From an archaeon UBA543 (GTDB lineage: Archaea; Undinarchaeota; Undinarchaeia; Undinarchaeales; UBA543), in assembly GCA_002502135.1 (NCBI GenBank), contig DAPM01000005.1, positions 1 to 59,598 on the forward strand: DNA of 59,598 bases, given 5' to 3'. Below, in pieces: positions 4,567-32,538 of this stretch. The position numbers were made by a program, and so were the translations under genes. Numbering within the stretch: the stretch's first letter is position 1; every line of letters begins with the position of its first letter. The notes below the pieces were generated by a model, which was given only the letters and a program-made list of their open reading frames with translations, was not told the origin of the DNA and did not search any database.

Positions 4567-5144
4567 ATTATTTTAAAATAGTGCGCAGTTATCCAGATTA
4601 TTCCGTGTAGAATTGAGACTAAGTAGAAATTAGGGAAGAAGACGTAGATGCTAGACAAACCAACACCGAGGCCCAACGTGAGCCAGAAGATTTTCCAGCT
4701 GTGGAATGGAATATGTGCGTATCCGAAAAGGAAAGACATTATCGGAATGATGATTATGATTGGGATGTTGAATGCTAGGAGAAGTGGAAACAAAATGCTT
4801 CTGTAAATGAATTCCTGTGCTGGAACAAACCATAGGCCGATGTAGTTGTTCAGGGTTCCTTTGAGCCGTTTGATGTGGCCCATTTTGTATTTGTTTTGTT
4901 TGAAATACGCACAGAGACCGAAAGCTAAGAAGAAAAATATGTAGTAATAGCCGTCTGCTTGTTCAAGATTATCAAAACGGAAACCAAGGTCGTGTAAAGA
5001 GTAACCGGCACTCCACGCCACAAAAACTGAGTACAGGGCCCCACCTAAGAAAAAGCCCCATCGGTATTTTACAGGAATTATATCATAGAATACTAGAGCG
5101 GGGAGTGCGATGTATAGAATTAAAAGGATTATCTCCGGGATCAT
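4563..5144 (-). CDS. CPBP-family (CAAX-type) intramembrane protease, putative
   Basis: 193 aa, multi-TM. Has QEFIYRSILFP (E-x3-R-like motif) and FGYAHIPFH. The match is degenerate, so this is tentative. Confidence 0.55.
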   Translation of the reverse strand: MIPEIILLILYIALPALVFYDIIPVKYRWGFFLGGALYSVFVAWSAGYSLHDLGFRFDNLEQADGYYYIFFFLAFGLCAYFKQNKYKMGHIKRLKGTLNNYIGLWFVPAQEFIYRSILFPLLLAFNIPIIIIIPIMSFLFGYAHIPFHSWKIFWLTLGLGVGLSSIYVFFPNFYLVSILHGIIWITAHYFKII

Positions 5145-10225: not shown

Positions 10226-10681
10226 ATGAATCCGTTCCTCTGGATGCTTGTGATAACTGTTGCACCGTTTATAGAGCTGAGGGGCTCGATCCCATATGGG
10301 ATTGCTGCTGGGATAAGTCCGGCTCTTGTAATTGTTTCATGTATTACATTTAACATTCTGTTGATACCGGTTTTGTTTGCGTTTTTGAATCTTTTCTTTG
10401 AAGGATTAGAGGATGTGCCATGGATTGGGAAGTTTATTGGAAGAAGAATGGCTAAGATTCACAAGAAAGCTGGGAAGTATGTTGATAGGTACGGACCAAT
10501 TGGGTTGGTGCTTTTTGTAGCTGTTCCTTTGCCAGGAACTGGAGCTTATTCTGGTGCGCTTGCTGCTTATTTGTTGGGAATGGATAAAAAGAAAGCAATG
10601 GTTTCTGTGGCAGTTGGTGTTTTAATTGCTGGAATTCTAGTTAGTTTGGCTAGCTTGGGTGTTGTTAATCTAGTTTTGTAA
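10226..10681 (+). CDS. small multidrug-export-like membrane protein (COG2426 family)
   Basis: PFIELRGSIPYGIAAG signature. The start is set at the internal ATG at 10226, because the tracked start at 10175 overlaps the divergent gene. Confidence 0.6.
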   Translation: MNPFLWMLVITVAPFIELRGSIPYGIAAGISPALVIVSCITFNILLIPVLFAFLNLFFEGLEDVPWIGKFIGRRMAKIHKKAGKYVDRYGPIGLVLFVAVPLPGTGAYSGALAAYLLGMDKKKAMVSVAVGVLIAGILVSLASLGVVNLVL

Positions 10682-10758
10682 CTCCGTCTCGCCACGGAGG
10701 ATGGCGGTAGGGCGTTCAGCTCACTTTGTTCGCTGAAGCCCTGTTTTGAAATTGGTTC
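10681..10758 (+). ncRNA. candidate structured RNA element, copy A (unknown class)
   Basis: 37 nt identical to copy B at 30182, followed by a hairpin (10710-10741) whose distal part differs from copy B but still pairs, then CTGTTTTGAA. Begins at the stop codon of the upstream CDS. Confidence 0.4.
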
Positions 10759-10815
10759 AAATAATTTATCTTTTTGTAAAGAGTTTTATAGTAGCAAGAG
10801 CAGAATTTTATTGTT

Positions 10816-10888
10816 GCCTCAGTAGCTCAGTTGGTAGAGCGTCGCTCTCGTAAAGCGAAGGCCGGGAGTTCAACTCTCCTCTGAGGCT
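10816..10888 (+). tRNA. tRNA-Thr (anticodon CGU)
   Basis: Cloverleaf: acceptor GCCTCAG/CTGAGGC, D-arm GCTC-AGTTGGTA-GAGC, anticodon stem TCGCT/AGCGA with loop CTCGTAA, T-arm GGGAG-TTCAACT-CTCCT. No encoded CCA. Confidence 0.9.
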
Positions 10889-10980
10889 TTCTTTTGGATT
10901 ATTATGAAGTGCGGGAAACATTTAAAACAAATGGAAATACTTCAGAAATTCGAAAAGGATTTAGCTGATTTTTAACCCAA

Positions 10981-11012
10981 TAAACTCACAAAAGTTAACA
11001 AAAATTTATAAC
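10981..11012 (+). promoter_or_regulatory. conserved promoter module P1 (TAAACTCACAAAAGTTAA-N2-AAAATTTATAA)
   Basis: Near-identical to modules at 52951-52982 and 54652-54684 (minus strand). Its TATA element ends ~23 nt before the ATG at 11035. Confidence 0.55.
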
Positions 11013-11034
11013 AACTAAGAGTCTCGCTGTTTTT

Positions 11035-12276
11035 ATGCTGTTTACTGAGATACTGTTGTTTATGTTAGCAGGCTGTGGACTTGGAATTGTAACTGGGTTA
11101 GTGCCAGGGATTCATATCAATATGGTTTCTGTGTTGGTGATTGCGTCCCTCCCAGTTTTTGCAGATTTTAGTCCACTTGCTGTTGCTTGTATGATAATGG
11201 CAATGAGTGTAACTCACACTTTTCTGGATTTTATTCCAAGTGTTTTGTTTGGAGCGCCGGAGAGTGGGACAGCACTTTCTGTTCTGCCAGGGCACAGGAT
11301 GTTGTTGAGTGGACGGGCGCTAGAGGCAATTAAGTTGACAGGCCTAGGGAGTTTGGTGAGCTTGCTGATAACTGCAGTTGTGTTTATTCCAGTTGTTGCT
11401 TTTCTGCCGGCTGCTTATGCTTTTGTGAAGCCAAATATTTTGTATTTGTTGATTTTTGTTTGTTGTATTAGTATTGGAACTGAAAAGAAACTGCTGACTG
11501 CGGGATTTGTTTTTCTGTTGGCTGGGTTGTTTGGTTTCTTTTTGTTGAATAGTAGTTTATTTGATTCAGGAATTATTTTTCCAGCGCTTTCAGGTATGTT
11601 TGGGATTAGTACAATGCTTTTGAGTTTGCGTGGAGAGTGTGTTATTCCGATTCAGATTAAAGCTAAAGCTACTTTGAAGGCTGGTGCTGTTTTGAAAAAC
11701 TCGTTTTTAGGTTCAATTGCTGGGATGATGGTGGGTATGTTACCAGGTTTGGGTGGGGCGCAGGCTACTTATTTGGTTCAGCAGGTTAGTCGAAAAGGCG
11801 GGGTGAAAGAGTTTTTGGTTGCTGCTAGTGGAGTGAATACTGCAAATATTATTTTTACATTGGTTGTTTTGTATGCTTTAGGGAAAATGCGGTCTGGAAT
11901 TGTAATTGCAATTGATAAAATTGTGACGAATTTTGGTTTTGTAGATTTGGTAATTTTTCTTGGGGTTATTTTGGGCGCTGGTGGAATTGCAATGCTACTG
12001 CACATAGGAATTGGCGGATTTTTGACAAAGAAAGTTTGTGGTGGTGGAAATTTTTATAATAAAATTACAGTAGGGATTATTTTGTTGATAGTTGTTTCTG
12101 TTATTTGGTTAACTGGATTAACAGGGCTCTTGGTTCTGGTTCTCAGCACAATAATTGGTTTGATTGCGCCATTAGCTGGTGTGAGAAGGGCGAATTGCAT
12201 GGCGTTCTTTTTAGTGCCAGTGATGTTGTATTATTCTGGATTGAATTTTTGGTTAATGAAATTGGTTGGTGTTTAG
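11035..12276 (+). CDS. TctA-like / DUF112 family membrane protein
   Basis: 413 aa and polytopic. GLVPGIHINMVSVL and LPGLGGAQATYL resemble TctA-family (COG1784) repeats. Confidence 0.5.
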   Translation: MLFTEILLFMLAGCGLGIVTGLVPGIHINMVSVLVIASLPVFADFSPLAVACMIMAMSVTHTFLDFIPSVLFGAPESGTALSVLPGHRMLLSGRALEAIKLTGLGSLVSLLITAVVFIPVVAFLPAAYAFVKPNILYLLIFVCCISIGTEKKLLTAGFVFLLAGLFGFFLLNSSLFDSGIIFPALSGMFGISTMLLSLRGECVIPIQIKAKATLKAGAVLKNSFLGSIAGMMVGMLPGLGGAQATYLVQQVSRKGGVKEFLVAASGVNTANIIFTLVVLYALGKMRSGIVIAIDKIVTNFGFVDLVIFLGVILGAGGIAMLLHIGIGGFLTKKVCGGGNFYNKITVGIILLIVVSVIWLTGLTGLLVLVLSTIIGLIAPLAGVRRANCMAFFLVPVMLYYSGLNFWLMKLVGV

Positions 12277-16086: not shown

Positions 16087-17517
16087 TTATTGATCTGTGA
16101 AATTGAAATTAACTAAGTTGAGCTCTCTGGTTTGAAGGTTTAAGAGAGGTAGGATTGCAGGGGTTGGTTCATGTCCGCAGAGTTTTTGGAATGCAGTCTG
16201 CCCTTGCCAGGTTCCGCTGTTGATGATGTTGATTCCACGGTACATTGAATTTCCATTTGAGTGAACGTGTCCGGCGTGGAAAATGTCAGGAACAGTTCGA
16301 ATAACCATTTGATCCTGGCCTGAAGCAATGAGGCCGGTGTCATATGGTGGCGATAGGTGCCTGCGGATAAGAAGTGATTTCATTACAAGTTCTGGTTTAG
16401 TATATCCATCTTTGAGAGTTGGGTCAGCAGTAATCAGTGAATCCAGACTTACTCCGTGGTACATGAGAACATCCAGACCACCGTTGTCGTGTTCTGCGAT
16501 TTTTATTGTGGCGGGGTTGCCGACAAGTTCAATATTTTTGAGTTTGTAAAGTGGTTCAGCAACTTCTGGGTCAAGTGGTGGTTGAGGCTGGCCGAGCCGG
16601 ATAAAATCGTGATTGCCAGGAGAAAGGATTGTTTTGATGTGGTTTGGCACTTGGGAAAAGTAGTTCGCAGCTTCTTGGTATTGCTCTTCAATATTTGCAA
16701 TTGAAAGTTCTTCATCCTGCCGAGGATATATCCCAATTCCGTCAACAATGTCTCCTGCAAGGAAACAGTATTTGATTTTTGAAACCAATTCCTGCTGCTC
16801 CTTTCCACCAACTTCACCATTAAGCCAGGAAAGGAAGCGTTTGAACTCTTTTTCCATGAATTTTTTGCTCCCAATGTGGGTGTCAGATAGAAAAATCGCA
16901 TAAGATTCATGTTTCAGTTTTTTTGGTTCAGCCACAACCGGGACATCTGGCCACATTATCTCGTCAGCAAACATTATTCCGTCGCCCATTGTTCCGGCAA
17001 CACCGATAGCCTCGTCCATTACAAGTGTTTCTGCTTGTGGTCTTACCTCTTTACCAGAGGCAACTATTTTCACTGTACCGGTTGGATCTTCAAGTTCAAA
17101 AAGAATATTTCCTTTTGCAGTTATGCGTTTGTTGCAGACCAAACCAATTGTGCTCACTTTTTCTTTTACCATTTTGGTCATGCTATTAACTGATGATGGG
17201 TTGGTCAGACGACCTGAAAGAAGTTTTCTAAAGTGGGTGTATCGATTGTTGAAAAAAGTGGAAAGGTCTGAAACCCCTCGAATTGGCTTGTTTTTTTCAA
17301 AGTTTTCAAGTATTGAAAGTGTGGATTCAGTTGGTTTGTTAAGGTTATCTTCAATGTGTTTTGGGAGGATTGTGATAATATCTTGGTTTATGTTTTTTAG
17401 TAAAAGCTCTGCTGCTTCTAGTGGTTTTTCCTGTTCCAGAACAAGCCCCAGCGCATCTTTTGATATTTGAACTTTATTATTTAGAAAAAGTTGGAGGGTC
17501 TCGTTTTCGAGACTCAC
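16087..17517 (-). CDS. polB: DNA polymerase II (PolD) small subunit DP1 (exonuclease)
   Basis: 476 aa. Calcineurin-like phosphoesterase motifs LSDTHIGS, GDIVDG, GNHD and GHVH. The GTG start overlaps the orc1 stop (GTGA). Confidence 0.9.
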   Translation of the reverse strand: MSLENETLQLFLNNKVQISKDALGLVLEQEKPLEAAELLLKNINQDIITILPKHIEDNLNKPTESTLSILENFEKNKPIRGVSDLSTFFNNRYTHFRKLLSGRLTNPSSVNSMTKMVKEKVSTIGLVCNKRITAKGNILFELEDPTGTVKIVASGKEVRPQAETLVMDEAIGVAGTMGDGIMFADEIMWPDVPVVAEPKKLKHESYAIFLSDTHIGSKKFMEKEFKRFLSWLNGEVGGKEQQELVSKIKYCFLAGDIVDGIGIYPRQDEELSIANIEEQYQEAANYFSQVPNHIKTILSPGNHDFIRLGQPQPPLDPEVAEPLYKLKNIELVGNPATIKIAEHDNGGLDVLMYHGVSLDSLITADPTLKDGYTKPELVMKSLLIRRHLSPPYDTGLIASGQDQMVIRTVPDIFHAGHVHSNGNSMYRGINIINSGTWQGQTAFQKLCGHEPTPAILPLLNLQTRELNLVNFNFTDQ

Positions 17518-18707
17518 GACAACTCTCCTTTCAAAATATCACGGGACTTTTCAAGTGCTCTCCCAGTCATTGCAAGTTTGATTTTTCTAGTGCGGCCATA
17601 CCTTCCTCTTGAAATCACGCTTGCATTTATTACACCCAACATATCAAGCTCTGAAATTAAATCCGATACCCTGCGTTGGGTTAACGGAGCCAATCTGCTT
17701 TGTTTGCAGAAGGTTTGGTATACTTCATAAACATCCCCAGTTCCAATTTTTTCATTATTTAGATCTGAAAGGTAGATGATGCTGTGAAGAACTAGCTGAG
17801 ATTGACGGGGTTGGGTTTTTACCACTTGCACAACACGGTCAATATCGAGTTTTTGCTGAGCATCGTCAACATGGTGTAGCTGAATTGTTGTATCGCCTTT
17901 CCGTTCGCACAGCTCACACGCCACTCTGAGAAGATCTAGAGCCCTTCTTGCATCTCCGTGCTCCTGGGCAGCCAGTGCTGCGCATTTAGGGATGACATCT
18001 GCTGCTAGAATGTCTTTCTGTAGTGCTATTTCAGCACGTTGGGATAGAATGTCTCGGAGCTGGGTTGCATTGTATGGTGGAAAAACTAGTTCTTCTTCAG
18101 AAAGTGATGATTTTATTCTTGGATCAATGTTGTTGGTGAAGGATAAATCATTTGAGATTCCAACAATACTCACCCGACTATCTTTTAATTCTGTGTTTAT
18201 TCTGGACAGGTTGTAAAGCACATCTGTGTCAGAAAGAGAATCAATTTCATCCAAAATCAGAATGAAGATGCCTTTTTTCTTGTGCATTGTTTTAATGAAA
18301 AGTTTGTAAACTTCATCTGTTGGTAATCCAGTAGATGGCACTTCTTCACCAAATTGTGCTAAAAAGTGTGCGAACATTCGGTAGGCGGTGTTGATTTTCT
18401 CAAGTTTGCAGTTGAGATAGCAGGTTTTTAGTGCTGTTTTCTGAGCTGCAGCTTTTTTCTCTAATTCCTGACCAACATATCTGGTTACAAGCGTTTTTCC
18501 AGTGCCGGTTTTGCCGTAAATAAATACATTGCTGGGTTTATCCCCCCGCAGAGCCGAAACCAAGATTTGAGCAAGCTGATTTATCTGCTCTTCCCTATGT
18601 GGAACCTGATTTGGCGTGTATGTGTCCTGAAGCGCGTCTTTTCTAGTGAAATTCGGAGCTCGGACTAGGTAATCATCGAAAAGTTTATGCAACGTTTGCT
18701 GTGCCAT
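17514..18707 (-). CDS. orc1: Orc1/Cdc6 replication initiator
   Basis: 397 aa. Walker A GKTGTGKT, Walker B ILILDEID, a C-terminal winged-helix-like region, and an adjacent ORB-bearing AT-rich region. Confidence 0.9.
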   Translation of the reverse strand: MAQQTLHKLFDDYLVRAPNFTRKDALQDTYTPNQVPHREEQINQLAQILVSALRGDKPSNVFIYGKTGTGKTLVTRYVGQELEKKAAAQKTALKTCYLNCKLEKINTAYRMFAHFLAQFGEEVPSTGLPTDEVYKLFIKTMHKKKGIFILILDEIDSLSDTDVLYNLSRINTELKDSRVSIVGISNDLSFTNNIDPRIKSSLSEEELVFPPYNATQLRDILSQRAEIALQKDILAADVIPKCAALAAQEHGDARRALDLLRVACELCERKGDTTIQLHHVDDAQQKLDIDRVVQVVKTQPRQSQLVLHSIIYLSDLNNEKIGTGDVYEVYQTFCKQSRLAPLTQRRVSDLISELDMLGVINASVISRGRYGRTRKIKLAMTGRALEKSRDILKGELS

Positions 18708-18847
18708 TTTAAAAACCCCACCTTGTGGCTTGACTTCAATTGAAGACCGTTAGCACTTGCATAAGGAGCGCCACACTCCCACCAACCCCAGTGCTTACTA
18801 AGTTGCATAGGAAATAAGGGTATATAAGGTTTATTGTACCTCCCTGA

Positions 18848-18867: not shown

Positions 18868-18906
18868 ATGTGGGGGAGATTTTTTGAGAGTTAAGTGGGG
18901 TTGGGT

Positions 18907-18927
18907 GTTCCAGATGAAGTAAAGGGG
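18907..18927 (+). promoter_or_regulatory. ORB-like box
   Basis: GTTCCAGATGAAGTAAAGGGG. Confidence 0.55.
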
Positions 18928-19056
18928 CCATTGTTGTTGGTTTTGGTGAGTTTTTATTGGATTATCTGAGCAAAATGATAAAATTAATTAAAATTATTTT
19001 CATAAAAAGAACTGTTGGTTCAGCAACTCAGAAAAATAATAGTGAAATCAATAGCA

Positions 19057-19076
19057 GTCCACAGGAAATAGAGGGG
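19057..19076 (+). promoter_or_regulatory. ORB-like box
   Basis: GTCCACAGGAAATAGAGGGG. Confidence 0.6.
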
Positions 19077-19086
19077 TTGTTTTCGG

Positions 19087-19107
19087 TTTCGAGATGAAAT
19101 GAAGGTG
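19087..19107 (+). promoter_or_regulatory. degenerate ORB-like box
   Basis: TTTCGAGATGAAATGAAGGTG, similar to the box at 18907. Confidence 0.35.
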
Positions 19108-19264
19108 TTGTTGGCGATTTTTGGTGAAAAACGGGCGATGAGTTGTGGTTTTATAGGAATATGAAAGAATAGTTTGGAAATTTTGGAAAACCCCTTAAAA
19201 ATATTGAGTTGTTGAGTCCCTTTTTCCTTTTGATGAACCCACCCCAGAATTAATGAGGTGATCA

Positions 19265-19382
19265 TTGAAAAAATTGAAAAATTTAGAAGAAAAAATATTA
19301 AAAAAAATAAAAATTTGGAAAAATAATGAAAAATTTGAAATAAAAATATTGAAAAAGTGTGTTAAAAAATTAAAAAAATTAA
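19265..19382. other. A-tract duplex-unwinding-element candidate
   Basis: A run made almost only of A/T, built from repeated (A/T)TTGAAAAA units, and flanked by ORB-like boxes. Confidence 0.6.
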
Positions 19383-19395
19383 GTTCCAGTGGAAG
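19383..19395 (+). promoter_or_regulatory. mini-ORB core
   Basis: GTTCCAGTGGAAG matches the classical TTCCAGTGGAA core. No G-string follows. Confidence 0.6.
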
Positions 19396-19488
19396 TTTTG
19401 GAAAAATTGGAATTTTCTTTATATATATAAATATTTTCCATATAGATAATAAATAATAAAGAAATTTTACACGAACGCTTCTTCTTGA

Positions 19489-19510
19489 TTCTCCAGGTGC
19501 AATTAAGGGG
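19489..19510 (+). promoter_or_regulatory. ORB-like box
   Basis: TTCTCCAGGTGCAATTAAGGGG. Confidence 0.45.
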
Positions 19511-19523
19511 TGGCAGGTAGTAA

Positions 19524-19545
19524 TTATTTACTATATAGTAAATAA
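19524..19545. repeat. 22-nt perfect palindrome, copy 1 of the TTTACTATATAGTAAA module
   Basis: TTATTTACTATATAGTAAATAA is its own reverse complement. Related copies sit at 20318-20348 and 29814-29844. Confidence 0.8.
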
Positions 19546-19596
19546 ATATAAAATATAAAAACAAATAATAAAAACCACATTTAATTAATTTTTTAA

Positions 19597-19758
19597 TTAT
19601 TTTCCCCTATAATTTGCATACCCACGCTCAATATATCTTTTAGTATTTTCCCAATATTTAAACCACAATTCAATTTCTCTTTTAATAACTCGAATCGGCA
19701 TTTCTGGTCCAACAACAGTTTTTTCTGCATCATCACTCAACTTTGCAAGGGCATTCAT
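19597..19758 (-). CDS. small hypothetical protein (53 aa)
   Basis: Not in the ORF track because it is under 60 aa. Its ATG overlaps the stop of the upstream ORF (ATGA at 19755-19758). Translation starts MNALAKLSDDAEKTVVGPEMPIRV. Confidence 0.4.
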   Translation of the reverse strand: MNALAKLSDDAEKTVVGPEMPIRVIKREIELWFKYWENTKRYIERGYANYRGK

Positions 19759-19961
19759 AAACCCTTAACATTATTTTTATTTATTCCATAACAAAAACCC
19801 AAAAACAAGTCCACACCACCAGGTTTTTCTAATATTTCCTGTCTTACTTCTAAATCATTTAATCGAAATTCAAATCGATCCTTTTTCTCTTTAACCCAAT
19901 TCATTATAAAAAGAAAAGCAGCTTTTTCTGCAGTAATTTCTTTGAATTTTTTCTCCTTCAT
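19755..19961 (-). CDS. small hypothetical protein (68 aa)
   Basis: ORF overlaps the upstream gene's stop by 4 nt, placing it in a three-gene coupled cassette. Confidence 0.45.
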   Translation of the reverse strand: MKEKKFKEITAEKAAFLFIMNWVKEKKDRFEFRLNDLEVRQEILEKPGGVDLFLGFCYGINKNNVKGL

Positions 19962-20317
19962 TTTTCTAACATCCCCCGATTCTCAAAACCGAGCTCCTTC
20001 ACCTTATTTTGCAAATCAGAATTTGCTTTGTGGCTAGCAGCTTGCCCAAGAGAATAATAAATATGTGTGCTCTCTCTGCCCCAGGTAAACCCACCTTTTT
20101 CTTGCTTAGCACCAATCTGCTTAAATTCGCCAAGATCTACACCGCGCTTGAAATGGTAGTACATTGAACGAATATCAACTGGCTCAAAAACTTGCTTGTA
20201 GATTTTGTAAACCTCATAACCATATGCAGAGCCAAGAGCATCAACAATTTGCTGCATTCGGTCTCTTATTACTGATTTTACTGGCCGACCACGACCTTTT
20301 TGAGCTTTTTTAGCCAT
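19958..20317 (-). CDS. AT-hook plus winged-helix (PadR-like) DNA-binding protein, putative
   Basis: Start set at the ATG at 20317 (MAKKAQKGRGRPVKS, where GRGRP is AT-hook-like). GYEVYKIYKQVF and SMYYHFKRGVDLGEF look like a winged helix. Promoter module lies immediately upstream. Confidence 0.55.
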   Translation of the reverse strand: MAKKAQKGRGRPVKSVIRDRMQQIVDALGSAYGYEVYKIYKQVFEPVDIRSMYYHFKRGVDLGEFKQIGAKQEKGGFTWGRESTHIYYSLGQAASHKANSDLQNKVKELGFENRGMLEK

Positions 20318-20348
20318 ATTATTTACTATATGGTAATTAATTAATAAA
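20318..20348 (-). promoter_or_regulatory. promoter/operator module, copy 2
   Basis: Minus strand reads TTTATTAATTAATTACCATATAGTAAATAAT directly abutting the ATG at 20317. That gives a TATA-like box at about -31 to -24 and a half-palindrome at -17 to -1. Confidence 0.55.
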
Positions 20349-20418
20349 GGTTTTGGTTGGGTCAATAACCAACACCCAATCCAATAATCTTAAGTAGTAG
20401 ATTACCCAAAATAACACT

Positions 20419-20950: not shown

Positions 20951-23128
20951 CTATTTTCTATAATCTCCGCTAATCACTTTTCTAATTTCTCTAGCTTTTT
21001 TATCCCCAATCTTCTCAATCTTTTTCAAATCAGATTCGCTAGCATTAACCACTTTTTCAACACTATTAAATTCTTCCAGCAATCGCTTTGCCAGCGAAGG
21101 CCCGACTTGCGGAAGCGACTCAATCATAAATTGTTGCTGTTCTTTCAATAAAACCGGTCGCTTCTCAGTTCTAAGTGCAACCTCCTGTTTATCATCAAAC
21201 TGCTCACGCCCAGCAAGCACTTTCAAAAAGTTGGCAGTATCTTCAACATCCCGAGTATAAACAAGTGGAATCTTAAAATCAACAGCAAGCGAAGCCAGCG
21301 CACCCCGAATTGCATTCGGATGAATATTTCTTTTCCCATGCAAACTATCCCCCTCAACAACAATAACTGGTCGTTCAAAAACTCTGGACAGTGCACCAGC
21401 CTGTTTCATTAACCGGCCGTCAATCAAAGACTGTAAAAAGTCATCAACTTGTTTCCGCTCCACCCCACACCGCTCAGAAATCTGAAAATCAGCAACCTGC
21501 AAACTTTTCATCCTCACCTCAACCCCATTTTCTGACAAATGTTTCAACAGACCAGATCCACCTTCTCGTGAATCTGCAAAAATTATTGGGATTTTATCAT
21601 CTTTCTTGGAAAACTTGTCAAGAGTTTTTTGATTACTTACTTGTCGTTCCTTAAATCCACTAAGCACAGTTTTCATTCTCTGCTCCTTTCTTTTCGCAGC
21701 CCAATAATATGCCTCGTCCCTTGTTCCTTTTGTAATCAACATTGAAATTCGTCCAGGTGCATGCCTTGCTGTCCTCCCTGCTCGCTGAATACTCCTAATT
21801 GCTGACGGCACAGACTCATAAAAAATAATGTGATCCACACTTGGAATATCTAAACCCTCTTCTCCAACAGAAGTTGCAACCAAAACTGAATACTCCCCAG
21901 CTCTAAATTTATCTAATCTCTTGATCTGTTCTTTCTGGCTAACACCTTTTCCTGTCTTCCCTTCTGCCTGTCCTATCAACTTAACTGCACTGATGTCTTC
22001 TGCTTTCAAAAGGTTCATAATATTCTCAACACTTGCTCGATAATGAGCAAAAATAATGTTTTTTTCGTTTTTATCAAGGATCTCAAGTAGTTTGTCAATT
22101 TTCGGGTGTTCCACTCCACCCTTCAACAACAAACCAGTTTGCCACATTGCTTCCTTAAACTCAGGATTCACTAACAAATTCTTCGCTGCCTTGGTATTAT
22201 CTGATCTCATTTTCTCAAAATAAGAATTGAGTGGAGTTATCCCTTGTGTTTCTAGAAGTTCTTGTGCATGGTATGCTTTCAAAACCCCAGCCAGCGCAGA
22301 CAAATATGGATAAAGGTCTTTATTCTGCCCAGCTTCTGACCCCAATTTTCCTTGAAGCATCAAAATATCCCGCTTCCTCAAAGCAGTCAGCGCGTCGCTT
22401 GAAATAATCCCACCTTTTTTCAAATATCGCAAATAACTTTTCAAAACACTTTCAAGCAAAGACTTTACTCTTGTAAACTCTTTTGGCAATTCCACTTCAA
22501 TATGCTTGAATGTCCGCTTCTTCACATACTGCCTAACCTCAGCGTCCTCTCTGTCTCTTGCCTCAACTTTTTCAATAAAAAGTGAATTGCAAATCCCTTC
22601 TACAGTCTGCCTGTCTGATCCTGGGGATGCTGTAAGCGCTAGTATGCGTGGGTTGTCTGCAGTTTCAACATACCTTTTTGCAATAAATGGATATGGGTAT
22701 TCTCCAACAGCCCGATGCGCCTCATCAAAAATAACCAGCACAAAATCATTCAGATTAACTTTTTTAGTTATTAAATCATTTTGAATAACCTGGGGCGTTG
22801 CGAATATGAAATCAGCGTCTTTGTACTCCTGCTCTCTCTTTCCTGGAAGCAGTTGTCCTGTAAAAACTTTGAAGTTATCTTCGGCCAAATCAAACTCTTT
22901 TTTCCAGGTTGTGCAGTGCTGCTCCACTAACGGCCTGGTCGGTGCCATAAACAGCACTTTCCCTTTGTGTTTCTCAGCTCTATGAGCTGCTAACATGGCT
23001 GCAATATGCGTTTTCCCAAGTCCTGTTGGGAGCACTACAAGAGTATTCGCACTAGCTGCAGTGTTGAAAATACTCTCTTGGTACAGCCTTGGCGTCAAAC
23101 CATTACTGCTCAATAACCCCTTCCCCAT
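20951..23128 (-). CDS. hef: Hef (helicase-associated endonuclease for fork-structured DNA; XPF/FANCM-like)
   Basis: 725 aa. N-terminal SF2 helicase (PTGLGKT, FDEAH), C-terminal ERCC4 nuclease region (ADSREGGS, VADF, GVERK) and a tandem HhH tail. Confidence 0.85.
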   Translation of the reverse strand: MGKGLLSSNGLTPRLYQESIFNTAASANTLVVLPTGLGKTHIAAMLAAHRAEKHKGKVLFMAPTRPLVEQHCTTWKKEFDLAEDNFKVFTGQLLPGKREQEYKDADFIFATPQVIQNDLITKKVNLNDFVLVIFDEAHRAVGEYPYPFIAKRYVETADNPRILALTASPGSDRQTVEGICNSLFIEKVEARDREDAEVRQYVKKRTFKHIEVELPKEFTRVKSLLESVLKSYLRYLKKGGIISSDALTALRKRDILMLQGKLGSEAGQNKDLYPYLSALAGVLKAYHAQELLETQGITPLNSYFEKMRSDNTKAAKNLLVNPEFKEAMWQTGLLLKGGVEHPKIDKLLEILDKNEKNIIFAHYRASVENIMNLLKAEDISAVKLIGQAEGKTGKGVSQKEQIKRLDKFRAGEYSVLVATSVGEEGLDIPSVDHIIFYESVPSAIRSIQRAGRTARHAPGRISMLITKGTRDEAYYWAAKRKEQRMKTVLSGFKERQVSNQKTLDKFSKKDDKIPIIFADSREGGSGLLKHLSENGVEVRMKSLQVADFQISERCGVERKQVDDFLQSLIDGRLMKQAGALSRVFERPVIVVEGDSLHGKRNIHPNAIRGALASLAVDFKIPLVYTRDVEDTANFLKVLAGREQFDDKQEVALRTEKRPVLLKEQQQFMIESLPQVGPSLAKRLLEEFNSVEKVVNASESDLKKIEKIGDKKAREIRKVISGDYRK

Positions 23129-23208
23129 ACCCTTTTCTTGAATTACCTTGCATATATTATTAACCCAACTGGCGAAAGTTTTTTAACCAACACTTAGAAT
23201 CAATACTT

Positions 23209-23430
23209 ATGCGCAAAACAGTTGACAAGTTCAGAAAATCCAAGGAAATCTCATCCTGGCTGAATGCATTTTCTAACAACATTTTGCCCCCAGCACTATT
23301 CCTTTTTATTGCAACAGTTGCACTTCACTACATTCCTCTTGTCTCAAACACACTTCTTCGCGTAAATCTTAGTGTAATATCGATAGTATCAGCCGCACTT
23401 TCACTCTATATCATCACTCTGATGCTCTGA
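23209..23430 (+). CDS. small membrane protein, hypothetical
   Basis: 73 aa with two hydrophobic segments. Confidence 0.35.
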   Translation: MRKTVDKFRKSKEISSWLNAFSNNILPPALFLFIATVALHYIPLVSNTLLRVNLSVISIVSAALSLYIITLML

Positions 23431-23466
23431 TGTAAATCTTTATATAGCCTATACCTTATACCTGTT

Positions 23467-24018
23467 ATGGGAATATTATCTATTTTCAAAAAAGCTAAAG
23501 ACAGTGTTAAAGAGGCCGTTGGCGCAGACACTGAAGCGAATTTTGGTGCAGAATCATTTGAAGAGCCTGTAGCAGAATCAACAGAACTTTCTGCTGTAGC
23601 ACCTGAACCCGAGTCTGGTGTAGATTCTAAACAGGAAGCCGACATTGATGAAGAACCAGAGCCTGAATTAGCACCAGAATTGCGGGATTCTATAGAAGGA
23701 GCAGGGTTTGAGCCAGCAGATGAAACTGAACCAGAAGAAAAACCAGAGCTGGAACCACCAGCCCCCGAACCAGAAACACATTCACCAGCACCCTCAGCCG
23801 ATTCTGCAAAAATTCTCCCAACTCTTGAAGTAATTAAAGCTAATATTGAAACAGTAGAAGCAAGAATTGAATCTTTGGAATCAAAAACACAATATCAACA
23901 TTCAGAAACAGAACGGTATATGCAGTACCTCAGCACACTGAATGAAAAACTTGATCACCTGCAAGAAGAACAAATTGAAATCGAACGCCTGCTAAAATCA
24001 AATGTCAACCAAGCCTAA
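23467..24018 (+). CDS. acidic low-complexity / coiled-coil protein (MGILSIFKKAK N-terminus)
   Basis: 183 aa. Glu/Pro-rich middle section and a heptad-rich C-terminus. The stop overlaps the start of the next gene. Confidence 0.5.
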   Translation: MGILSIFKKAKDSVKEAVGADTEANFGAESFEEPVAESTELSAVAPEPESGVDSKQEADIDEEPEPELAPELRDSIEGAGFEPADETEPEEKPELEPPAPEPETHSPAPSADSAKILPTLEVIKANIETVEARIESLESKTQYQHSETERYMQYLSTLNEKLDHLQEEQIEIERLLKSNVNQA

Positions 24019-24613
24019 GGGGAAGAATATTCTCCTTCACCATGAAACCGCATTACTTGTTATTACCCTGGTTGCCGCACTTGTAATTACAACAACTATC
24101 TTCATCCTTCTTTGGAGTTTTCTGAAAATCGGGTTTGTCTGGCTCATCTGCTTCCTGATTTTCTTTATGATCAGAAAAACAAACTTATGGAAGTTCTCGA
24201 TTGAGGTTCACTTTTTCATGATTTTCGTGACAACATTTGTTTTTGGGTGGCTATTTTCTACCTCATTGTTTATTGCAGTAATTGTTATTGTTGTCAAGTT
24301 TTTCCGTCCTGACGAACTCCAGGGAGCTATCATAAATATTGTTTGTCTTTCAATTGTTACTGGACTGACTGTATATCTTACTTCTGTTTTCGGTATGGCA
24401 ATTGCACCTTCAACATTTATCTGGGTTGCTACTGCTGTTGTTGCGCTTGGTATTTTCCTAGATTATGTGATGATTCTGCGAATCTTTCCATACTTATGGC
24501 TGAAACTTACAATGATGCACATTCTTGAAGTTTTCTTACAATATTACTTCATTGTTGCTTTCGGTTTCAAAATTTTCCAACTCCTTCTTTCAATAAAAAC
24601 CGTTGCCCCATAG
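24002..24613 (+). CDS. multi-TM membrane protein, paralogue A (FRPDELQG family, unknown)
   Basis: 203 aa. Shares KNILLHHET, RKTxxWK, FRPDELQG and YGM motifs with the next gene. Confidence 0.6.
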   Translation: MSTKPKGKNILLHHETALLVITLVAALVITTTIFILLWSFLKIGFVWLICFLIFFMIRKTNLWKFSIEVHFFMIFVTTFVFGWLFSTSLFIAVIVIVVKFFRPDELQGAIINIVCLSIVTGLTVYLTSVFGMAIAPSTFIWVATAVVALGIFLDYVMILRIFPYLWLKLTMMHILEVFLQYYFIVAFGFKIFQLLLSIKTVAP

Positions 24614-24650
24614 AAACCTATATTAAACCCTACTTGTATAAACAATTTAA

Positions 24651-25271
24651 GTGAGCATCACAAACAATATCTCACTTGCCAAAGCTCGGGGGCAGAAAAA
24701 TATTCTCCTGAACCACGAGACAGTTCTTATTGTAGGTGCTATACTTGCTGCAATTATACTCTTCACTCTTTTCTTCTCATTTTTGTGGGCAAAATTTCAG
24801 GTAGCCTTTGTCTGTATTCTAGCATGGATCTTGATAGTGATTACCAGAAAGACCGACTCATGGAAAATGGGAATTGAATGTTACTATATCTTCACATTTT
24901 TACTGGCGTATGCATTTAATGTGTGGCTTTCCCTTTTTGTAGTTGTTTCTGGAGTGCTATTTGTGATAAAAGTGTTCCGTCCTGACGAACTCCAGGGTTC
25001 GTTGTCTCAGCTCTTCGGCATAATCGGTATTGGTTTCAGCACAAAATTCTTTGTGGCAAGGTATGGTATGTCAATAACTAAACCACAACTGCTTTTTGCA
25101 GGGTTAATCCTTTTCATTATCTGGGATTTTATTCGTTTCTTGGCCGCACTCAAGATCTGCCCAGCTCATTGGGTCAAACTATTCGCATCTTTCATCACTG
25201 GAATTTTTGTCAATTACTTCTACTACAGCACATTCGCATTCCCTCTCCTCATGTTCCTCTTGTCACTCTAG
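24651..25271 (+). CDS. multi-TM membrane protein, paralogue B (FRPDELQG family, unknown)
   Basis: 206 aa with a GTG start. A 23-nt stretch (24975-24997) is identical to 24302-24324 in paralogue A. Confidence 0.6.
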   Translation: MSITNNISLAKARGQKNILLNHETVLIVGAILAAIILFTLFFSFLWAKFQVAFVCILAWILIVITRKTDSWKMGIECYYIFTFLLAYAFNVWLSLFVVVSGVLFVIKVFRPDELQGSLSQLFGIIGIGFSTKFFVARYGMSITKPQLLFAGLILFIIWDFIRFLAALKICPAHWVKLFASFITGIFVNYFYYSTFAFPLLMFLLSL

Positions 25272-25307
25272 CCTAAAACTATTTGAACCACCATTTTGTA
25301 ACACTTT

Positions 25308-26135
25308 ATGAGGGAAAGAATGAAAAAATCAATATTAATCTTGATATTGCTACTGCTGGCAGTTCCAATTGTATTTGCAAGCAGCCGAATTGTGGTTGTT
25401 GCAAACTCAATAGACTACGAAAATGCAGATCCTTTTATAGATCATATGGACAGCCGAGGCAGACCAGTTCTTCACATTACAGCGCAGGACCTTGATGCGC
25501 ACAACCAGGAGAAGTTTGTTGTAATTCTCGGTGGGCCAGATGCGCCAGAAGGGATCGGAACCCAGGTTCAGGAGCTTCTTTCTGAAAAAGATATGGAATT
25601 TATCAGGGAAAAGCGCGGAAACAAAAAAATGTTTGTCAAAACCAATGTGTGGCGCAAGGGTCAGGTTGTTATGATAATTGCAGGCAACCACAGAACCGAC
25701 ACCAAGAGTGCAATGAATGAGAACAAGGATCCAGTTTTACAGGAATCTACAGAAGCTCAAATTGAAGAACTGTCTAAGAACACACTTCCAATTGAATTGA
25801 AGATTGAGGGATTCAATTTCTCCCAGAACGAAAGCGGCGACGGTAACTGGTACTTCTATTGGGTTGAGTTTTCAATGGAGCACAGCGGTACTGAGAGCAT
25901 CCAGCCAATGATTGATGTGGAATTGACAAGGAAAAAAGACGGCAAGTACGAGCAGGTTTTCCTGAATACAAATGTAACTCACTTTGACGAGCCATTTGAT
26001 CCAAAGGATTTGTGGCTTGACAATTATTCTGATGCAGTTAAACTGGATGCCGGAAAGCACAAGTTAATTGTAAGATTAAGAGATGGTGCAAGCTCTGAAG
26101 TTATTAGTGAGGATGTTGAGGACTTTTTGCGTTAA
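25308..26135 (+). CDS. secreted protein, hypothetical
   Basis: 275 aa. N-terminal signal-like MKKSILILILLLLAVPIVFASS. Confidence 0.55.
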   Translation: MRERMKKSILILILLLLAVPIVFASSRIVVVANSIDYENADPFIDHMDSRGRPVLHITAQDLDAHNQEKFVVILGGPDAPEGIGTQVQELLSEKDMEFIREKRGNKKMFVKTNVWRKGQVVMIIAGNHRTDTKSAMNENKDPVLQESTEAQIEELSKNTLPIELKIEGFNFSQNESGDGNWYFYWVEFSMEHSGTESIQPMIDVELTRKKDGKYEQVFLNTNVTHFDEPFDPKDLWLDNYSDAVKLDAGKHKLIVRLRDGASSEVISEDVEDFLR

Positions 26136-28191: not shown

Positions 28192-28206
28192 AGTTTAGAT
28201 TAATTT

Positions 28207-28623
28207 TTACTCTGCAGGTGCTTCTTCTGGTGCTGGCTCTTCTGCTGGAGCAGCTTCCTCTGCCGGTGCCTCTGCCTCAGCTGGAGCTTCTGCTTCTGCA
28301 GGTGCAGCTTCTTCCACTGGTGCTTCTTCAACAGGTGCGGTTTCTGCTTCTGCTGGAGCTTCTGTTGGTGCAGCTGGTGTCTCGCTAGGTATAGCTGCCA
28401 TTTCTTTTATTCTAGCACAGATAAACTCTACAACTTCTGGTGCATCTGGAATTGTGAAGCTCTTCTTGAACCTCTTAGTTCCATCCGGTGCGAAAAAGCC
28501 GCGTGAAATTGCGACAAACTCGTTTGTACCTTCCGGTGCTATAGCCCTTTTTCGAGCAACTTCAATGAAGTTGTTGTTTCCAAAGGGTACTTCTTCTGCT
28601 TTAATTGTTTCAAATTCTACCAT
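28207..28623 (-). CDS. hypothetical protein with Pro/Ala/Glu-repeat tail (N-domain possibly PC4/ssDNA-binding-like)
   Basis: The ATG at 28623 is preceded by GGAGG 8 nt upstream. The C-terminus is made of APAEAE repeats. The N-domain guess is weak. Confidence 0.5.
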   Translation of the reverse strand: MVEFETIKAEEVPFGNNNFIEVARKRAIAPEGTNEFVAISRGFFAPDGTKRFKKSFTIPDAPEVVEFICARIKEMAAIPSETPAAPTEAPAEAETAPVEEAPVEEAAPAEAEAPAEAEAPAEEAAPAEEPAPEEAPAE

Positions 28624-28734
28624 TTTCTTTTCCTCCAAATTAAGTAACAACCGAAAACTCTAGTGTTCCTAGGGGTCGTATTGTAACTTTTTGCATTCTA
28701 GAACTAGAATAAGTAATTTAAAAGGTTTTTGATT

Positions 28735-29844: not shown

Positions 29845-30028
29845 TAGGTTATTTTTAATCCAACCCATAAGGCACACTCACAAAATCATTCTCAAAAATC
29901 CTACACCTTTCCACTTCTCACAAACCGATTTTTCACACACAATCCCACATCCCTCACACACAAAACCCTCACAAATCCCCCGAAACACGTATAAATCCCA
30001 AGATCCTACACATAAACACTCACAAACT

Positions 30029-30122
30029 GCGCCGGTAGTTTAGCCTGGTATGACCTAAGCTTCCCAAGCCTCTCAAAAGGCGAAAACAGCTTATGACCCG
30101 AGTTCGAATCTCGGCCGGCGCA
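30029..30122 (+). tRNA. tRNA-Gly (anticodon CCC) with an intron of about 21 nt in the anticodon loop
   Basis: Acceptor GCGCCGG/CCGGCGC, T-arm CCGAG-TTCGAAT-CTCGG, anticodon stem TAAGC...GCTTA with loop start TTCCCA. About 21 extra nt (~30067-30087) lie at the canonical 37/38 position. Confidence 0.8.
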
Positions 30123-30181
30123 TTTTTTCTTTCTCACAATACCTCTAAATACTGACAAATGTCCATATTCTAACTCTCCCA

Positions 30182-30254
30182 AACTCCGTCTCGCCACGGA
30201 GGATGGCGGTAGGGCGTTCGTGCTTCGCACGAAGCCCTGTTTTGAAGTTGGTTC
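30182..30254 (+). ncRNA. candidate structured RNA element, copy B (unknown class)
   Basis: Same 37-nt 5' part as copy A. The hairpin at 30212-30238 has a UUCG tetraloop and the same bulged G, and the same CTGTTTTGAA tail follows. TATA-like CTCTAAATA lies ~30 nt upstream. Confidence 0.45.
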
Positions 30255-30447
30255 GGTCTGTTTAAGTGACTATTGTCAGTTATTCTAACTCTCACAAACG
30301 AAATATTCACTTAATTTTCGGTAGTGCGCTTGCTATCGGTTTTGATATATCAGAGTTTTCATATATCCCTGCACATAAAACCTATATCCTTAACAATATA
30401 AATTCTATCTCTCACACCCAAAAACCCAATACCTGACAAATGTCATG

Positions 30448-30614
30448 TAGTGGGTAGTTGGTGGTTGGTAGTAGGTAGAATTATGATATTTTGCACCAAA
30501 ACACCCCAAAACTAGGAAATTTATCAAAAATCAGCCAAAACCACCATATCAGTGACAAATGTCACTTATTCGCACCTTCTCTACTCTCCACCCACTACAA
30601 TCTACCTTCCACCC
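30448..30614. repeat. inverted pair of GGTAG-type heptamer arrays
   Basis: Array at 30448-30480 (TAGTGGGTAGTTGGTGGTTGGTAGTAGGTAGAA) and an approximate inverted partner at 30576-30614. Confidence 0.55.
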
Positions 30615-30890
30615 AATAAAATTCCAGTTTTAGTAATTTATCCAGCAAAACATCAATTTCAATACTCCTAAAACCACTAGCATGAAATATGTCAGGTCGC
30701 AAAACCAATAGCAACAAATATGTCATCTGACATATCTTACATATAAATCTGACATATGTACTGTTTGCCCTACATCAAAAACCGCTAGCCTGCGACTAAA
30801 ACCGATAGCAGTGAAATGTCAGATATGTAAGCTTACATATCTTACACGTTTTTCGAAAGGTTTATAAGGGAGAAAGCACTACCCACCGAC

Positions 30891-31445
30891 ATGAAACTGT
30901 TCTCATTTTTCAAGAAAAAACCCAAAAATGTGTCCGATATGTCAGGTGACACATTACCTGACACATCAGATGTATCAGATGACACATCTGACATATCAGA
31001 GGTGACAAATGTCCCTGTTTCACGCGAAGATCCACTTTTCACTATTTCAAGACAACTAACTCAAGTTCAATACGAACTCAAAGACATCAAACCACTTATT
31101 GAATCTAGCACACAAAGCCTTCGCGAAGACCACTACAGATTACTCGAAGAACAAGCAAAAACAGTTGAAGAATACAAAAAACACCTTAATTACAAGAAAG
31201 AAAACCTGAAGCAAGCAAAACAACGAGTAGAAACTGAATTAAAACACATAGACGTCGACAGCAAAATCTTAGATCACCTTTCAATAGCCCCAAAACGCAC
31301 AGTAGAAATTTCTGAAGAATTAAAAATTAGCAGAGGCTATGCTGCAGAACGTGTGAAAGCATTACTTGAAGCAGGCCAAATCGACCGCTTCAAACAAGGT
31401 AAAAAAGCTTATTACAAAATCCCAAAACCAGAAGCAAGCAACTAA
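30891..31445 (+). CDS. hypothetical DNA-binding protein (iteron-encoded Ser/Asp repeat, coiled coil, C-terminal winged-helix-like)
   Basis: 184 aa. TATA-like TTTATAAGG ends ~20 nt before the ATG. N-terminus MKLFSFFKKK, and C-terminus ISRGYAAERVKALLEAGQIDRFKQGKKAYYKI looks like a wHTH. Confidence 0.55.
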   Translation: MKLFSFFKKKPKNVSDMSGDTLPDTSDVSDDTSDISEVTNVPVSREDPLFTISRQLTQVQYELKDIKPLIESSTQSLREDHYRLLEEQAKTVEEYKKHLNYKKENLKQAKQRVETELKHIDVDSKILDHLSIAPKRTVEISEELKISRGYAAERVKALLEAGQIDRFKQGKKAYYKIPKPEASN

Positions 31446-31446
31446 A

Positions 31447-31557
31447 CTACTTCTTCTTTTGTCTCTTGGCCTTAGCCTTCCTTTTCCTAATTTTCTTCTT
31501 TGTAGTGCGCCATCTCTCACTACCTTTCTTTTTAAAATTCCGTGGTTTACTCTTCAT
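31447..31557 (-). CDS. 36-aa extremely basic peptide, putative
   Basis: MKSKPRNFKKKGSERWRTTKKKIRKRKAKAKRQKKK. TTATAAA box lies ~25-31 nt upstream of the ATG. Absent from the ORF track because it is under 60 aa. Confidence 0.4.
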   Translation of the reverse strand: MKSKPRNFKKKGSERWRTTKKKIRKRKAKAKRQKKK

Positions 31558-31666
31558 TACTCGGTCTTGATGCCACTGGTTGTTTATAAGGTTTCCCCCC
31601 TATTCTCAATAACCGAAAAAATAACTCTCACAAAAATATTTAAACTACAACCAACATCTTCTTTTT

Positions 31667-31876
31667 ATGGTTAAAGATAGACAAATTCATACATATCCCG
31701 ATCTTAAAAAAAGATTAGCAAAAGCACGAAAACATCTCGATGCTATCGATGAAAAAATAAAAGCTGACAACGATCCTGCAGCAATCAAAGAGCTAGCTCG
31801 TACAGTCGATTATCTTGGTTTTGTTTTGGATGACGTCTTAGCTGTGTTATATCAAAGAAGACTCCTCAAGGAATAA
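31667..31876 (+). CDS. small hypothetical protein (69 aa)
   Basis: The ATG is preceded by CTCACAAAA-ATATTTAAA (word plus TATA) at about -25. Confidence 0.5.
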   Translation: MVKDRQIHTYPDLKKRLAKARKHLDAIDEKIKADNDPAAIKELARTVDYLGFVLDDVLAVLYQRRLLKE

Positions 31877-31878
31877 AC

Positions 31879-32472: not shown

Positions 32473-32495
32473 TATAGTAAACTCTGACGCAAACT

Positions 32496-32538
32496 ACTTT
32501 ATCAAAAAACTGGTTCCGGTCTACCATAACGGTGTGAT
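32496..32538. repeat. 43-nt direct repeat, copy 1 (TATA plus TACCA-N3-xGGTx dyad)
   Basis: 34/43 identical to 32598-32640 by my hand alignment. On the minus strand it supplies TTTTTGATAAAG about 30 nt upstream of the ATG at 32472. Confidence 0.65.

Follow-up and report, generated by a model that had tools for sequence, protein, structure and literature searches.

A lineage-restricted family of small, structured mosaic repeats, with a possible role at transcript ends, in an uncultured marine archaeon

The window analysed here is positions 1-59,598 of contig DAPM01000005.1 of archaeon UBA543, chromosomal DNA of an uncultured marine archaeon that encodes PolD (DP2 and DP1), Cdc6, Hef and SerRS. 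Metagenome runs containing the window are from seawater or marine samples, and several contigs of the same species come from TARA Oceans assemblies. The nearest named relatives of the window's proteins are labelled 'archaeon', Diapherotrites, Altiarchaeota or Naiadarchaeales, which points to a probable DPANN-like host. Two copies of a short element, A and B, lie on the plus strand beside plus-strand tRNA genes, at distances of 58 nt (tRNA-Thr) and 59 nt (tRNA-Gly) that agree with the limit of about 60 nt in the initial annotation, and copy A starts, as annotated, at the stop codon (10679-10681) of the upstream Sm_multidrug_ex gene. The initial annotation proposed a two-copy, tRNA-associated structured RNA; our analysis puts in its place a repeat family that is confined to one lineage and was recently inserted. 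About 80 kb of this genome's sequence was examined. For comparison we used contigs L006 and L009 (relatives at site A), L022 (which carries a further copy, C), L025-L032 (strains at site B) and L033/L034 from the sister species GCA_964636545.1, whose SerRS is 85% identical to that of the window. Coordinates are collected in Table 1.

Re-reading of the window confirmed that the two look-alikes of about 78 nt are real and have the sequences originally given. A repeat search found an exact direct repeat of 38 nt (10680-10717 and 30182-30219), that is, the identical 37-nt 5' part described earlier plus one A, and the 3' part GAAGCCCTGTTTTGAA-(A/G)-TTGGTTC is likewise common to both copies. Where they diverge is the distal portion of P2, a bulged hairpin. 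The 16-mer core GGATGGCGGTAGGGCG occurs at these two window sites only, with up to 3 mismatches allowed and 0.09 matches expected from shuffles. Copy A is identical in 8 contigs of the same species. Tail-like 12-mers occur 13 times in the window (2.1 expected), most of them within genes.

The element is not restricted to two copies. Logan contigs from metagenome run X3, aligned to the copies, include seven core-bearing contigs, corresponding to A, B, C (as L022) and D to G, with depths of 14.6, 14.4, 14.1, 14.1, 14.8, 14.7 and 14.5. In this run ~14.5x, which is also the depth of the sequence flanking A and B, is the single-copy depth of the genome. The family thus has at least seven copies per genome, each at single-copy depth in the same genome. 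Copy C is complete on the TARA contig L022 (8134-8257), which occurs in the same metagenome runs as the window. A partial copy, H, has the tail of B in common; it lies on another contig of this genome, where the sequence upstream of it is a different one. Assemblies break within the element (L014, L016). The tail TTGAARTTGGTTC is common to A, B, F, G and the sister copies, and a ATTTATTT-like extension is found in copy A and in the 3' flank of copy G.

The covariance-model search proposed in the initial annotation found homologues in the window's own species and in its sister. The model, R1, was built from A and B alone and matches L022 8185-8257 (38 bits) and L033 6078-6154, which equals L034 4700-4776 (43 bits, E = 7e-8); with filters off it also catches the upstream halves of both of these long copies. 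A divergent sister copy, L033 13279-13349, is a weak match and lies on the minus strand between two plus-strand genes. An R1 match upstream of cdc6 (18735-18803, 12.8 bits) was rejected because it is without the core. The family was not found in ~250 kb of more distant relatives, three patterns gave 0 matches in IMG/VR viral contigs, a metagenome pattern including P1 gave nothing, a pattern of the core and the P2 base gave L022 only, no further copy lies in the 10 kb past the left end of the window, and a literature text search for the core sequence returned nothing. The sole match in a GTDB genome scan with the 20-mer common to A and B was an array of repetitive extragenic palindromic (REP) sequences in an Acidobacteria metagenome-assembled genome (JAJXZZ010000270.1; L021 2800-3040), in which intergenic GTAG-type REPs (GGTAGGGCAACCCTTCAGGGTTGCCT, three times) are interleaved with the palindrome CAAGGCTAAAGCCTTGCCCTACGGAAGCGCC; this was judged a resemblance and rejected as a homologue.

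An Rfam scan, also suggested at the outset, assigned no family to either copy, and the long forms on L022 and L033 are without a match too. In the window, Rfam 15 at the gathering threshold reports tRNAs only, and local scans of both copies at E <= 10 (300-nt search) gave noise matches only. Among these, an AdoCbl match (10626-10717; 13 bits against a gathering threshold of 50, E 5.6) is the only one touching a copy. The sole snoRNA match, TtnuCD6, lies downstream of B on the minus strand (30274-30306; 15 bits against 50, E 6.8). As first stated, the element does not match the C/D or H/ACA consensus: neither strand has a C box, CUGA occurs in A alone and ACA only after C. Hammerhead, twister, pistol, hatchet and hepatitis delta virus (HDV)-like ribozyme models gave no match at E <= 10 for both copies and the long forms, and the HDV-like, pistol and hammerhead topologies, which in addition have the wrong strand order, were rejected. 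Also rejected were a tRNA half or tRNA-like element, since no arm fits, and a short open reading frame (ORF) from the ATG in GGATGG, which is of different frame and length in each of A, B and C and lacks its ATG in D.

The short form of the element consists of a 6-bp hairpin, P1, with the 6-nt loop CUNGCC, a linker that is usually GAUGGCGG(U), an invariant junction AGGGC, P2, and a tail with the consensus UGUYUUGAARUUGGUUC. In P2, AGGGC is followed by a bulged purine and UUC, which are closed by GAA-GCCC, and the P1 loop pairs with the downstream linker GGCN. The long form (~130 nt; copy C on L022 and the sister copy on L033) has two extra hairpins between P1 and the linker, UGUGCAG...CUGCACA and CUCAAACC-UUC-GGUUUGAG. 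The P2 hairpin of copy A is as it had been drawn, with an 11-nt loop; the stem of copy B also stands, but its proposed TTCG tetraloop does not, the loop being TTC, of 3 nt, or CTTCG with the last pair open. Plus-strand folding energies are unremarkable when compared with shuffles (z = -1.5 for A and -1.7 for B), so the structural case rests on comparing the copies.

This comparison shows that the predicted fold is maintained through compensatory changes, as the annotation had claimed for P2, and extends the claim to P1 and to the loop-linker pairing. P1 has exchanged complementary bases among the copies (Table 1), and the loop-linker pairing has three Watson-Crick variants (C-G, G-C and U-A) at one position. 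In the alignment, which is fitted to the model and holds four distinct sequences, 95.8% of the cells are paired and double changes occur at five pairs, with none when the registers are slid by 1 to 3 columns. The pairing CGCCA/TGGCG, originally described as a mutually exclusive hairpin, covaries too and would behave as a pseudoknot or a switch. In the long form ~57 nt lie between the loop and linker strands, and a pseudoknot is sterically easy. Finally, G-U pairs in the tail hairpin of B, F and G exist only on the plus-strand reading.

Copies A and B are absent from the corresponding sites of the sister species, and the expectation that they are conserved at orthologous positions did not hold. 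At site A, the empty sites of L009 and L006 (neighbouring protein 89% and 69% identical) join the stop codon directly to the tRNA-Thr promoter (10780-10815 in the window), which is conserved in relatives without the element. The insertion measures 98 nt and is bounded by a perfect 8-bp direct repeat, TTTTGTAA. At site B, tRNA-Gly of the sister species is followed by a single AACTCTCACAAAC unit and then by downstream sequence conserved with that of the window. In the window, copy B is enclosed by two units of this kind, ~30 nt long and distinguished by 5 mismatches and 1 gap. Since both sites are empty in the sister species, A and B are lineage-specific insertions, and the site comparison shows them to have been acquired, as judged from these sequences, after the split between the two species. 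No empty-site alleles at A or B were seen in the metagenome runs examined. The divergent sister copy at L033 13279-13349 is an insertion as well, because the window has no intergenic spacer at the matching locus. A and B were also considered as attL and attR of an integrated element. This was rejected because the intervening 19.5 kb contains PolD, Cdc6, Hef and the origin region, and because the order of PolD and Cdc6 is the same in relatives, where Hef is located elsewhere. A bulge-helix-bulge intron was rejected since the insertion ends are not complementary.

The copies are assembled from exchangeable parts. All of them have the same P2 base, and the distal part of this hairpin is modular: the distal module of A, CTCACTTTGTTCGC, recurs in the divergent sister copy, and the P2 module of B is that of C, 2 bp longer. 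Stepwise compensation in a duplicated gene, as a reading of the difference between the A and B hairpins, is not supported, given the recurrence of CTCACTTTGTTCGC in a different copy of another species. This recurrence shows the copies to be mosaics of older modules, and the A/B difference is, as the distribution of modules indicates, a reassortment of old modules.

Proximity to tRNA genes is not a feature of the family. Copy C-long lies 37 nt upstream of a large surface-protein ORF, in its 5' leader, directly after the promoter-proximal motif AGTGTTGCACTACA, and the leaders of homologous surface-protein genes (L023, L024) do not contain the element. In the sister species the copies are found between protein genes, and the divergent one is antisense to both of its neighbours. 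Given these mixed orientations and positions, closeness to tRNA genes is not defining. The 3' flank of copy G, GTGGGGCCACAGGG, resembles the start of a 5S rRNA. Copy A follows a stop codon and has no TATA-like or promoter-like box of its own, while a TATA-like hexamer, read by eye, stands ~25 nt before a CTC(A/T)C(A/C)CAA motif found immediately ahead of copy B, of the sister long copy and of tRNA-Gly. A run of four T after P2 had been put forward as a termination signal. This is plausible at most: a terminator scan flags copy B (7-bp stem, GCCCTGTTTT; P2 followed by TGTTTT) but not copy A.

On balance, we lean towards reading copies A and B as members of a lineage-restricted family of small (~78-130 nt), GC-rich, mosaic, structured interspersed repeats that would serve as cis-acting transcript-end modules. 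The unit may have been copied into intergenic DNA by a route unlike that of DDE enzymes, for which ectopic recombination, template switching or a single-strand enzyme are candidates. The element is probably transcribed, either with neighbouring transcripts or at their start, and its compact fold of pseudoknot and hairpin, followed by U-rich sequence, could form a stable transcript end as a terminator, an insulator or a nuclease block. For copy A, such a role would be exerted between the membrane-protein gene and the tRNA-Thr promoter. By analogy, the family would be comparable in function to the bacterial REP and bacterial interspersed mosaic elements (BIMEs) or to BOX elements without being a member of either. 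Roles in termination and mRNA stabilisation have been proposed for REP/BIME elements (PMC3733652, PMC2817692). Like these, the archaeal copies are short GC-rich imperfect palindromes in intergenic, presumably transcribed DNA, are mosaics of hairpin modules and linkers, and vary in presence among close relatives. In contrast, their host is an archaeon, there are ~7-8 copies instead of hundreds, inverted pairs are missing with copies solitary or in direct composites, no RAYT was found in the ~80 kb examined, and there is an additional P1 hairpin with its covarying loop-linker pairing. The BOX elements of Streptococcus pneumoniae are modular boxA-boxB-boxC repeats (PMC3049150). They are also small, interspersed and modular with optional internal modules, as in the short and long forms here, have a predicted stable structure, and are co-transcribed with neighbouring genes, as may be the case for the archaeal family; a mobilisation mechanism is known for neither. 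However, there is no sequence relation, the host belongs to another domain of life, the archaeal copy number is much lower and the pseudoknot-type pairing is particular to the archaeal family. The MITEs of bacteria and archaea, miniature transposable elements with inverted repeats (PMC10969869), are similarly non-autonomous, small and intergenic, and the perfect short direct repeat at copy A is MITE-like. Terminal inverted repeats are lacking, though: the ends ACTCCGTCTCGCC... and ...TTGGTTCAAATAATTTATC are not complementary and the repeat search found none. In addition, the flanking duplications appear to vary in length (8 bp at A and ~30 nt, imperfect, at B) and no parent insertion sequence is known.

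The main alternative, possible if rather unlikely, is that the copies are independently transcribed small RNA genes, paralogues of ~80-130 nt with their own TATA box and a CTCNCAA start region like that of tRNA-Gly. By way of the invariant junction and tail, these RNAs would work in trans or be bound by a protein. The TATA-like boxes before copy B, the sister long copy and tRNA-Gly fit this, as do the position of C-long right after AGTGTTGCACTACA, the sequence conservation of junction and tail next to covarying pairings, and the G-U pairs restricted to the plus strand. However, the promoters were assigned by eye, copy A sits on a stop codon without a TATA-like box, one sister copy is antisense to both neighbours, positions are not conserved between the sister species, and coverage in two metatranscriptomes is zero, that of the tRNA included. 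A bolder version, which we regard as doubtful, would make the copies genes of a new class of pseudoknotted archaeal small RNAs with a tRNA-like promoter (TATA ~25 nt before CTCACAA) that multiply and move in DPANN genomes, possibly through an RNA intermediate, with AGGGC-R-UUC...GAA-GCCCUGU and UUGAARUUGGUUC as a protein-binding or catalytic core. If the copies were autonomous small RNA genes, they would represent a new archaeal RNA class.

We consider it improbable that the element acts at the DNA level, either as single-stranded DNA hairpins recognised by a Y1 (HUH) transposase or RAYT-like enzyme, or as a TTGAA-N5-TTCAA protein-binding site. The tetranucleotide GTAG precedes P2 in copies A to D (GGTAGGGC...GCCC), as in GTAG-type REPs, the only match of the 20-mer in the genome collection is the bacterial REP array with its three GGTAGGGCAACCCTTCAGGGTTGCCT units, and the copies are intergenic, occur in both orientations and differ in presence between the window's species and its relatives. 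But GTAG is not conserved, with E and F lacking the T (CGAGGGC) and the sister having TGAGGGC, and neither the ~7-8 copies nor the missing inverted pairs resemble REPs. The ends of IS200/IS605 elements and their miniature derivatives (PATEs) also have hairpins in place of terminal inverted repeats and a tetranucleotide 5' of the hairpin. The end hairpins of IS200/IS605 resemble each other, whereas P1 has no sequence relation to P2; copy A is flanked by a duplication, and no TnpA or TnpB is encoded nearby, nor was a Y1 transposase found in the ORFs scanned. Further, A and B lie one on each side of cdc6 and the AT-rich putative origin but have the same plus-strand orientation, without a switch, which argues against targeting of the lagging-strand template as in IS200/IS605, and loop-linker covariation is unexpected for a simple DNA hairpin site. 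A riboswitch-like leader, in which a pseudoknot aptamer and a terminator hairpin would control the downstream gene, is very improbable. Like preQ1-I and SAM-II H-pseudoknot riboswitches and pistol, the element has a hairpin loop that pairs downstream and then a second hairpin; the P1 loop and linker allow a pseudoknot or an alternative helix, P2 with U4 resembles an expression platform, and copy C lies in a 5' leader. However, C is the only such copy, the homologous genes do without it, A follows a stop codon and is separated from the tRNA by a conserved promoter, and another promoter-like unit follows copy B. The downstream genes share no function, the contexts are not riboswitch-like, no riboswitch model matches above noise, the preQ1-I, SAM-II and pistol models give nothing at E <= 10, and pistol has a different strand order.

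Several observations weigh against a repeat family with a role at transcript ends. The flanking duplications at A and B are unlike, perfect over 8 bp at one site and imperfect over ~30 nt at the other, and no single insertion mechanism fits both. No transposase, integrase, RAYT-like or TnpA gene, and no PF01797-type match, was found among the ORFs scanned in the ~80 kb in hand. For copies D to G the evidence is limited to 30-nt flanks and alignment summaries, and the pairing count draws on few sequences in a model-fitted alignment. By general geometry, the short-form L3 of 3 nt leaves little steric room to span the 6-bp P1 in a true H-type pseudoknot, hence in this form the pseudoknot would be strained or the two helices would alternate. 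B, C-long and sister-long start within ~10 nt of the predicted transcription start, which better fits an RNA gene or a 5' leader. T4 is a weak archaeal terminator, and the terminator scan left copy A unflagged, owing to an oversized loop and a T run limited to T4. No RNA runs with the locus were found, and two metatranscriptomes from one locus-bearing metagenome sample gave zero coverage, the tRNA included.

Much work on bacteria has dealt with small structured interspersed repeats (REP/BIME, BOX and Correia elements), which there shape termination, mRNA stability and small-RNA evolution. Such repeat families are barely described in archaea: to our knowledge, no comparable family with a tested fold is known in DPANN-type archaea, and the literature found describes none. 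The family reported here is small enough for complete study, has been gained recently at defined sites, comes in a short and a long architecture and includes a loop-linker pairing that covaries. From it one could learn how an element spreads in a reduced archaeal genome in which no transposase was found in the ~80 kb examined, and whether it is co-opted as a transcript-end module beside highly expressed stable-RNA genes.

Table 1. Features of the element copies, their flanks and their structural variants (window coordinates unless a contig is named; R1 is the covariance model built from copies A and B).
Feature	Position	Strand	Basis or remark
tRNA-Thr(CGU), neighbour of copy A	10816-10888	+	ARAGORN and Rfam
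tRNA-Gly(CCC), intron-bearing, neighbour of copy B	30028-30123	+	ARAGORN and Rfam
TTTTGTAA, left copy, includes stop codon of upstream gene	10674-10681	.	sequence comparison with empty sites
TTTTGTAA, right copy, end of 98-nt insertion	10772-10779	.	sequence comparison with empty sites
Left imperfect ~30-nt direct repeat at copy B: GACAAATGTCCATATTCTAACTCTCCCAA	30154-30182	.	one unit in sister species
Right imperfect ~30-nt direct repeat at copy B: GACTATTGTCAGTTATTCTAACTCTCACAA	30268-30297	.	
Copy A, short form (P1, linker, P2, tail)	10681-10760	+	R1 match, 107.9 bits
Copy A P1: CTCCGT / loop CTCGCC / ACGGAG	10682-10699	+	fold; compensatory variants in D, E, C-long, sister-long
Copy A loop-linker pairing CGCC : GGCG (pseudoknot or alternative helix)	10690-10693 : 10703-10706	+	covariation across copies
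Copy A P2: GGGC-G-TTCAGC, 11-nt loop, GCTGAA-GCCC	10710-10741	+	fold; invariant stem base, modular distal part
Copy A tail: TGTTTTGAAATTGGTTCAA (weak hairpin TTGAA/TTCAA) and AT-rich extension AATAATTTATC	10742-10771	+	
Copy B, short form	30183-30256	+	R1 match, 97.7 bits; invariant in 8 strain contigs L025-L032
Copy B P1, same sequence as in copy A	30184-30201	+	fold
Copy B loop-linker pairing CGCC : GGCG	30192-30195 : 30205-30208	+	copy comparison
Copy B P2: GGGC-G-TTCGTGC, loop TTC, GCACGAA-GCCC	30212-30237	+	fold; terminator-like flag
Copy B tail: TGTTTTGAAGTTGGTTCGG and TCTGTTTAAGT	30238-30267	+	30243-30267 recurs with 1 mismatch in copy H
P1 variant, A and B: CTCCGT / ACGGAG			
P1 variant, D: CTCTGT / ACAGAG			
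P1 variant, E: CTCCGC / GCGGAG			
P1 variant, C-long: GTCAGA / TCGGAC			one mismatch
P1 variant, sister: CTCCGC / GCGGAC			one mismatch
Loop : linker, A, B, D, C-long: CGCC : GGCG			
Loop : linker, E: GGCC : GGCC			
Loop : linker, sister: UGCC : GGCA			
TATA-like box to motif, copy B	30146-30151 to 30174		TAAATA, just upstream of left repeat; CTCTCCCAA at 30174-30182
TATA-like box to motif, sister long copy	L033 5990-5995 to 6018		
TATA-like box to motif, tRNA-Gly	29990-29996 to 30018		

Some further features were seen around the copies. In two homologous surface-protein genes, whose products begin MVYKKY..GK..GPYYYES, the motif AGTGTTGCACTACA stands right after the TATA box (L022 8119-8132 and L024 162-175); it might be a conserved signal for the start or the leader. 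Downstream of copy B, a hairpin TCGGTAGTGCGCTTGCTATCGG followed by TTTT (30318-30345), which is also present in the sister species (L033 ~4716-4745), received a terminator-like flag, and the related motif ACCGATAGCA recurs at ~30800 and ~33150. The tRNA-Gly(CCC) gene is 96 nt with its intron in the window and 74 nt and intron-less in the sister (L033 4556-4629). Near site A, in contig L001 (10460-11240; Sm_multidrug_ex 76% identical), an ORF with LAGLIDADG-like motifs (GDGNI, DTDGC) lies between this gene and a tRNA-Thr that looks interrupted, possibly representing a homing endonuclease with an intron. The 8-mer CTCACAAA occurs 18 times in the window (4.5 expected), including plus-strand sites within 29877-31634 and minus-strand sites within 33197-33441. 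Seven plus-strand sites before and after tRNA-Gly and five minus-strand sites ~3 kb further on form convergent arrays that enclose tRNA-Gly, copy B and a set of small ORFs, including two with scores for winged-helix/helix-turn-helix proteins (30891-33025). This arrangement is conserved in the sister species (L033 4380-7500), and the 8-mer could be a promoter or start motif, an iteron, or part of a segregation or regulatory locus.

Elsewhere in the window, cdc6 (17514-18707, minus strand) adjoins an AT-rich stretch at the cumulative GC-skew maximum, and a likely replication origin can be placed at 18900-20400, with a GC content of 0.29 at 19-20 kb. AT-rich repeats TTATTTACTATATAGTAAATAA are found nearby at 19425, 19518 and 20313, with a fourth copy at 29816. 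Hef and four small neighbouring genes (20951-26135, compared with L006 3394-8755) lie inverted on the other side of the cdc6/origin block, and this flip relative to the L006 and sister arrangement is compatible with an inversion with one breakpoint at the origin. A promoter-like repeat of ~66 nt (10968-11037, 52926-52991 and 54632-54697; 76-77% similar) contains CTCACAAAAG and TTTATAA, and is located upstream of the TctA gene and twice, inverted, near 53-55 kb. Lastly, an 18-nt tandem repeat (28201-28362) with six copies at 18-nt spacing falls inside the minus-strand ORF 28207-28650, where it would encode a six-residue repeat.

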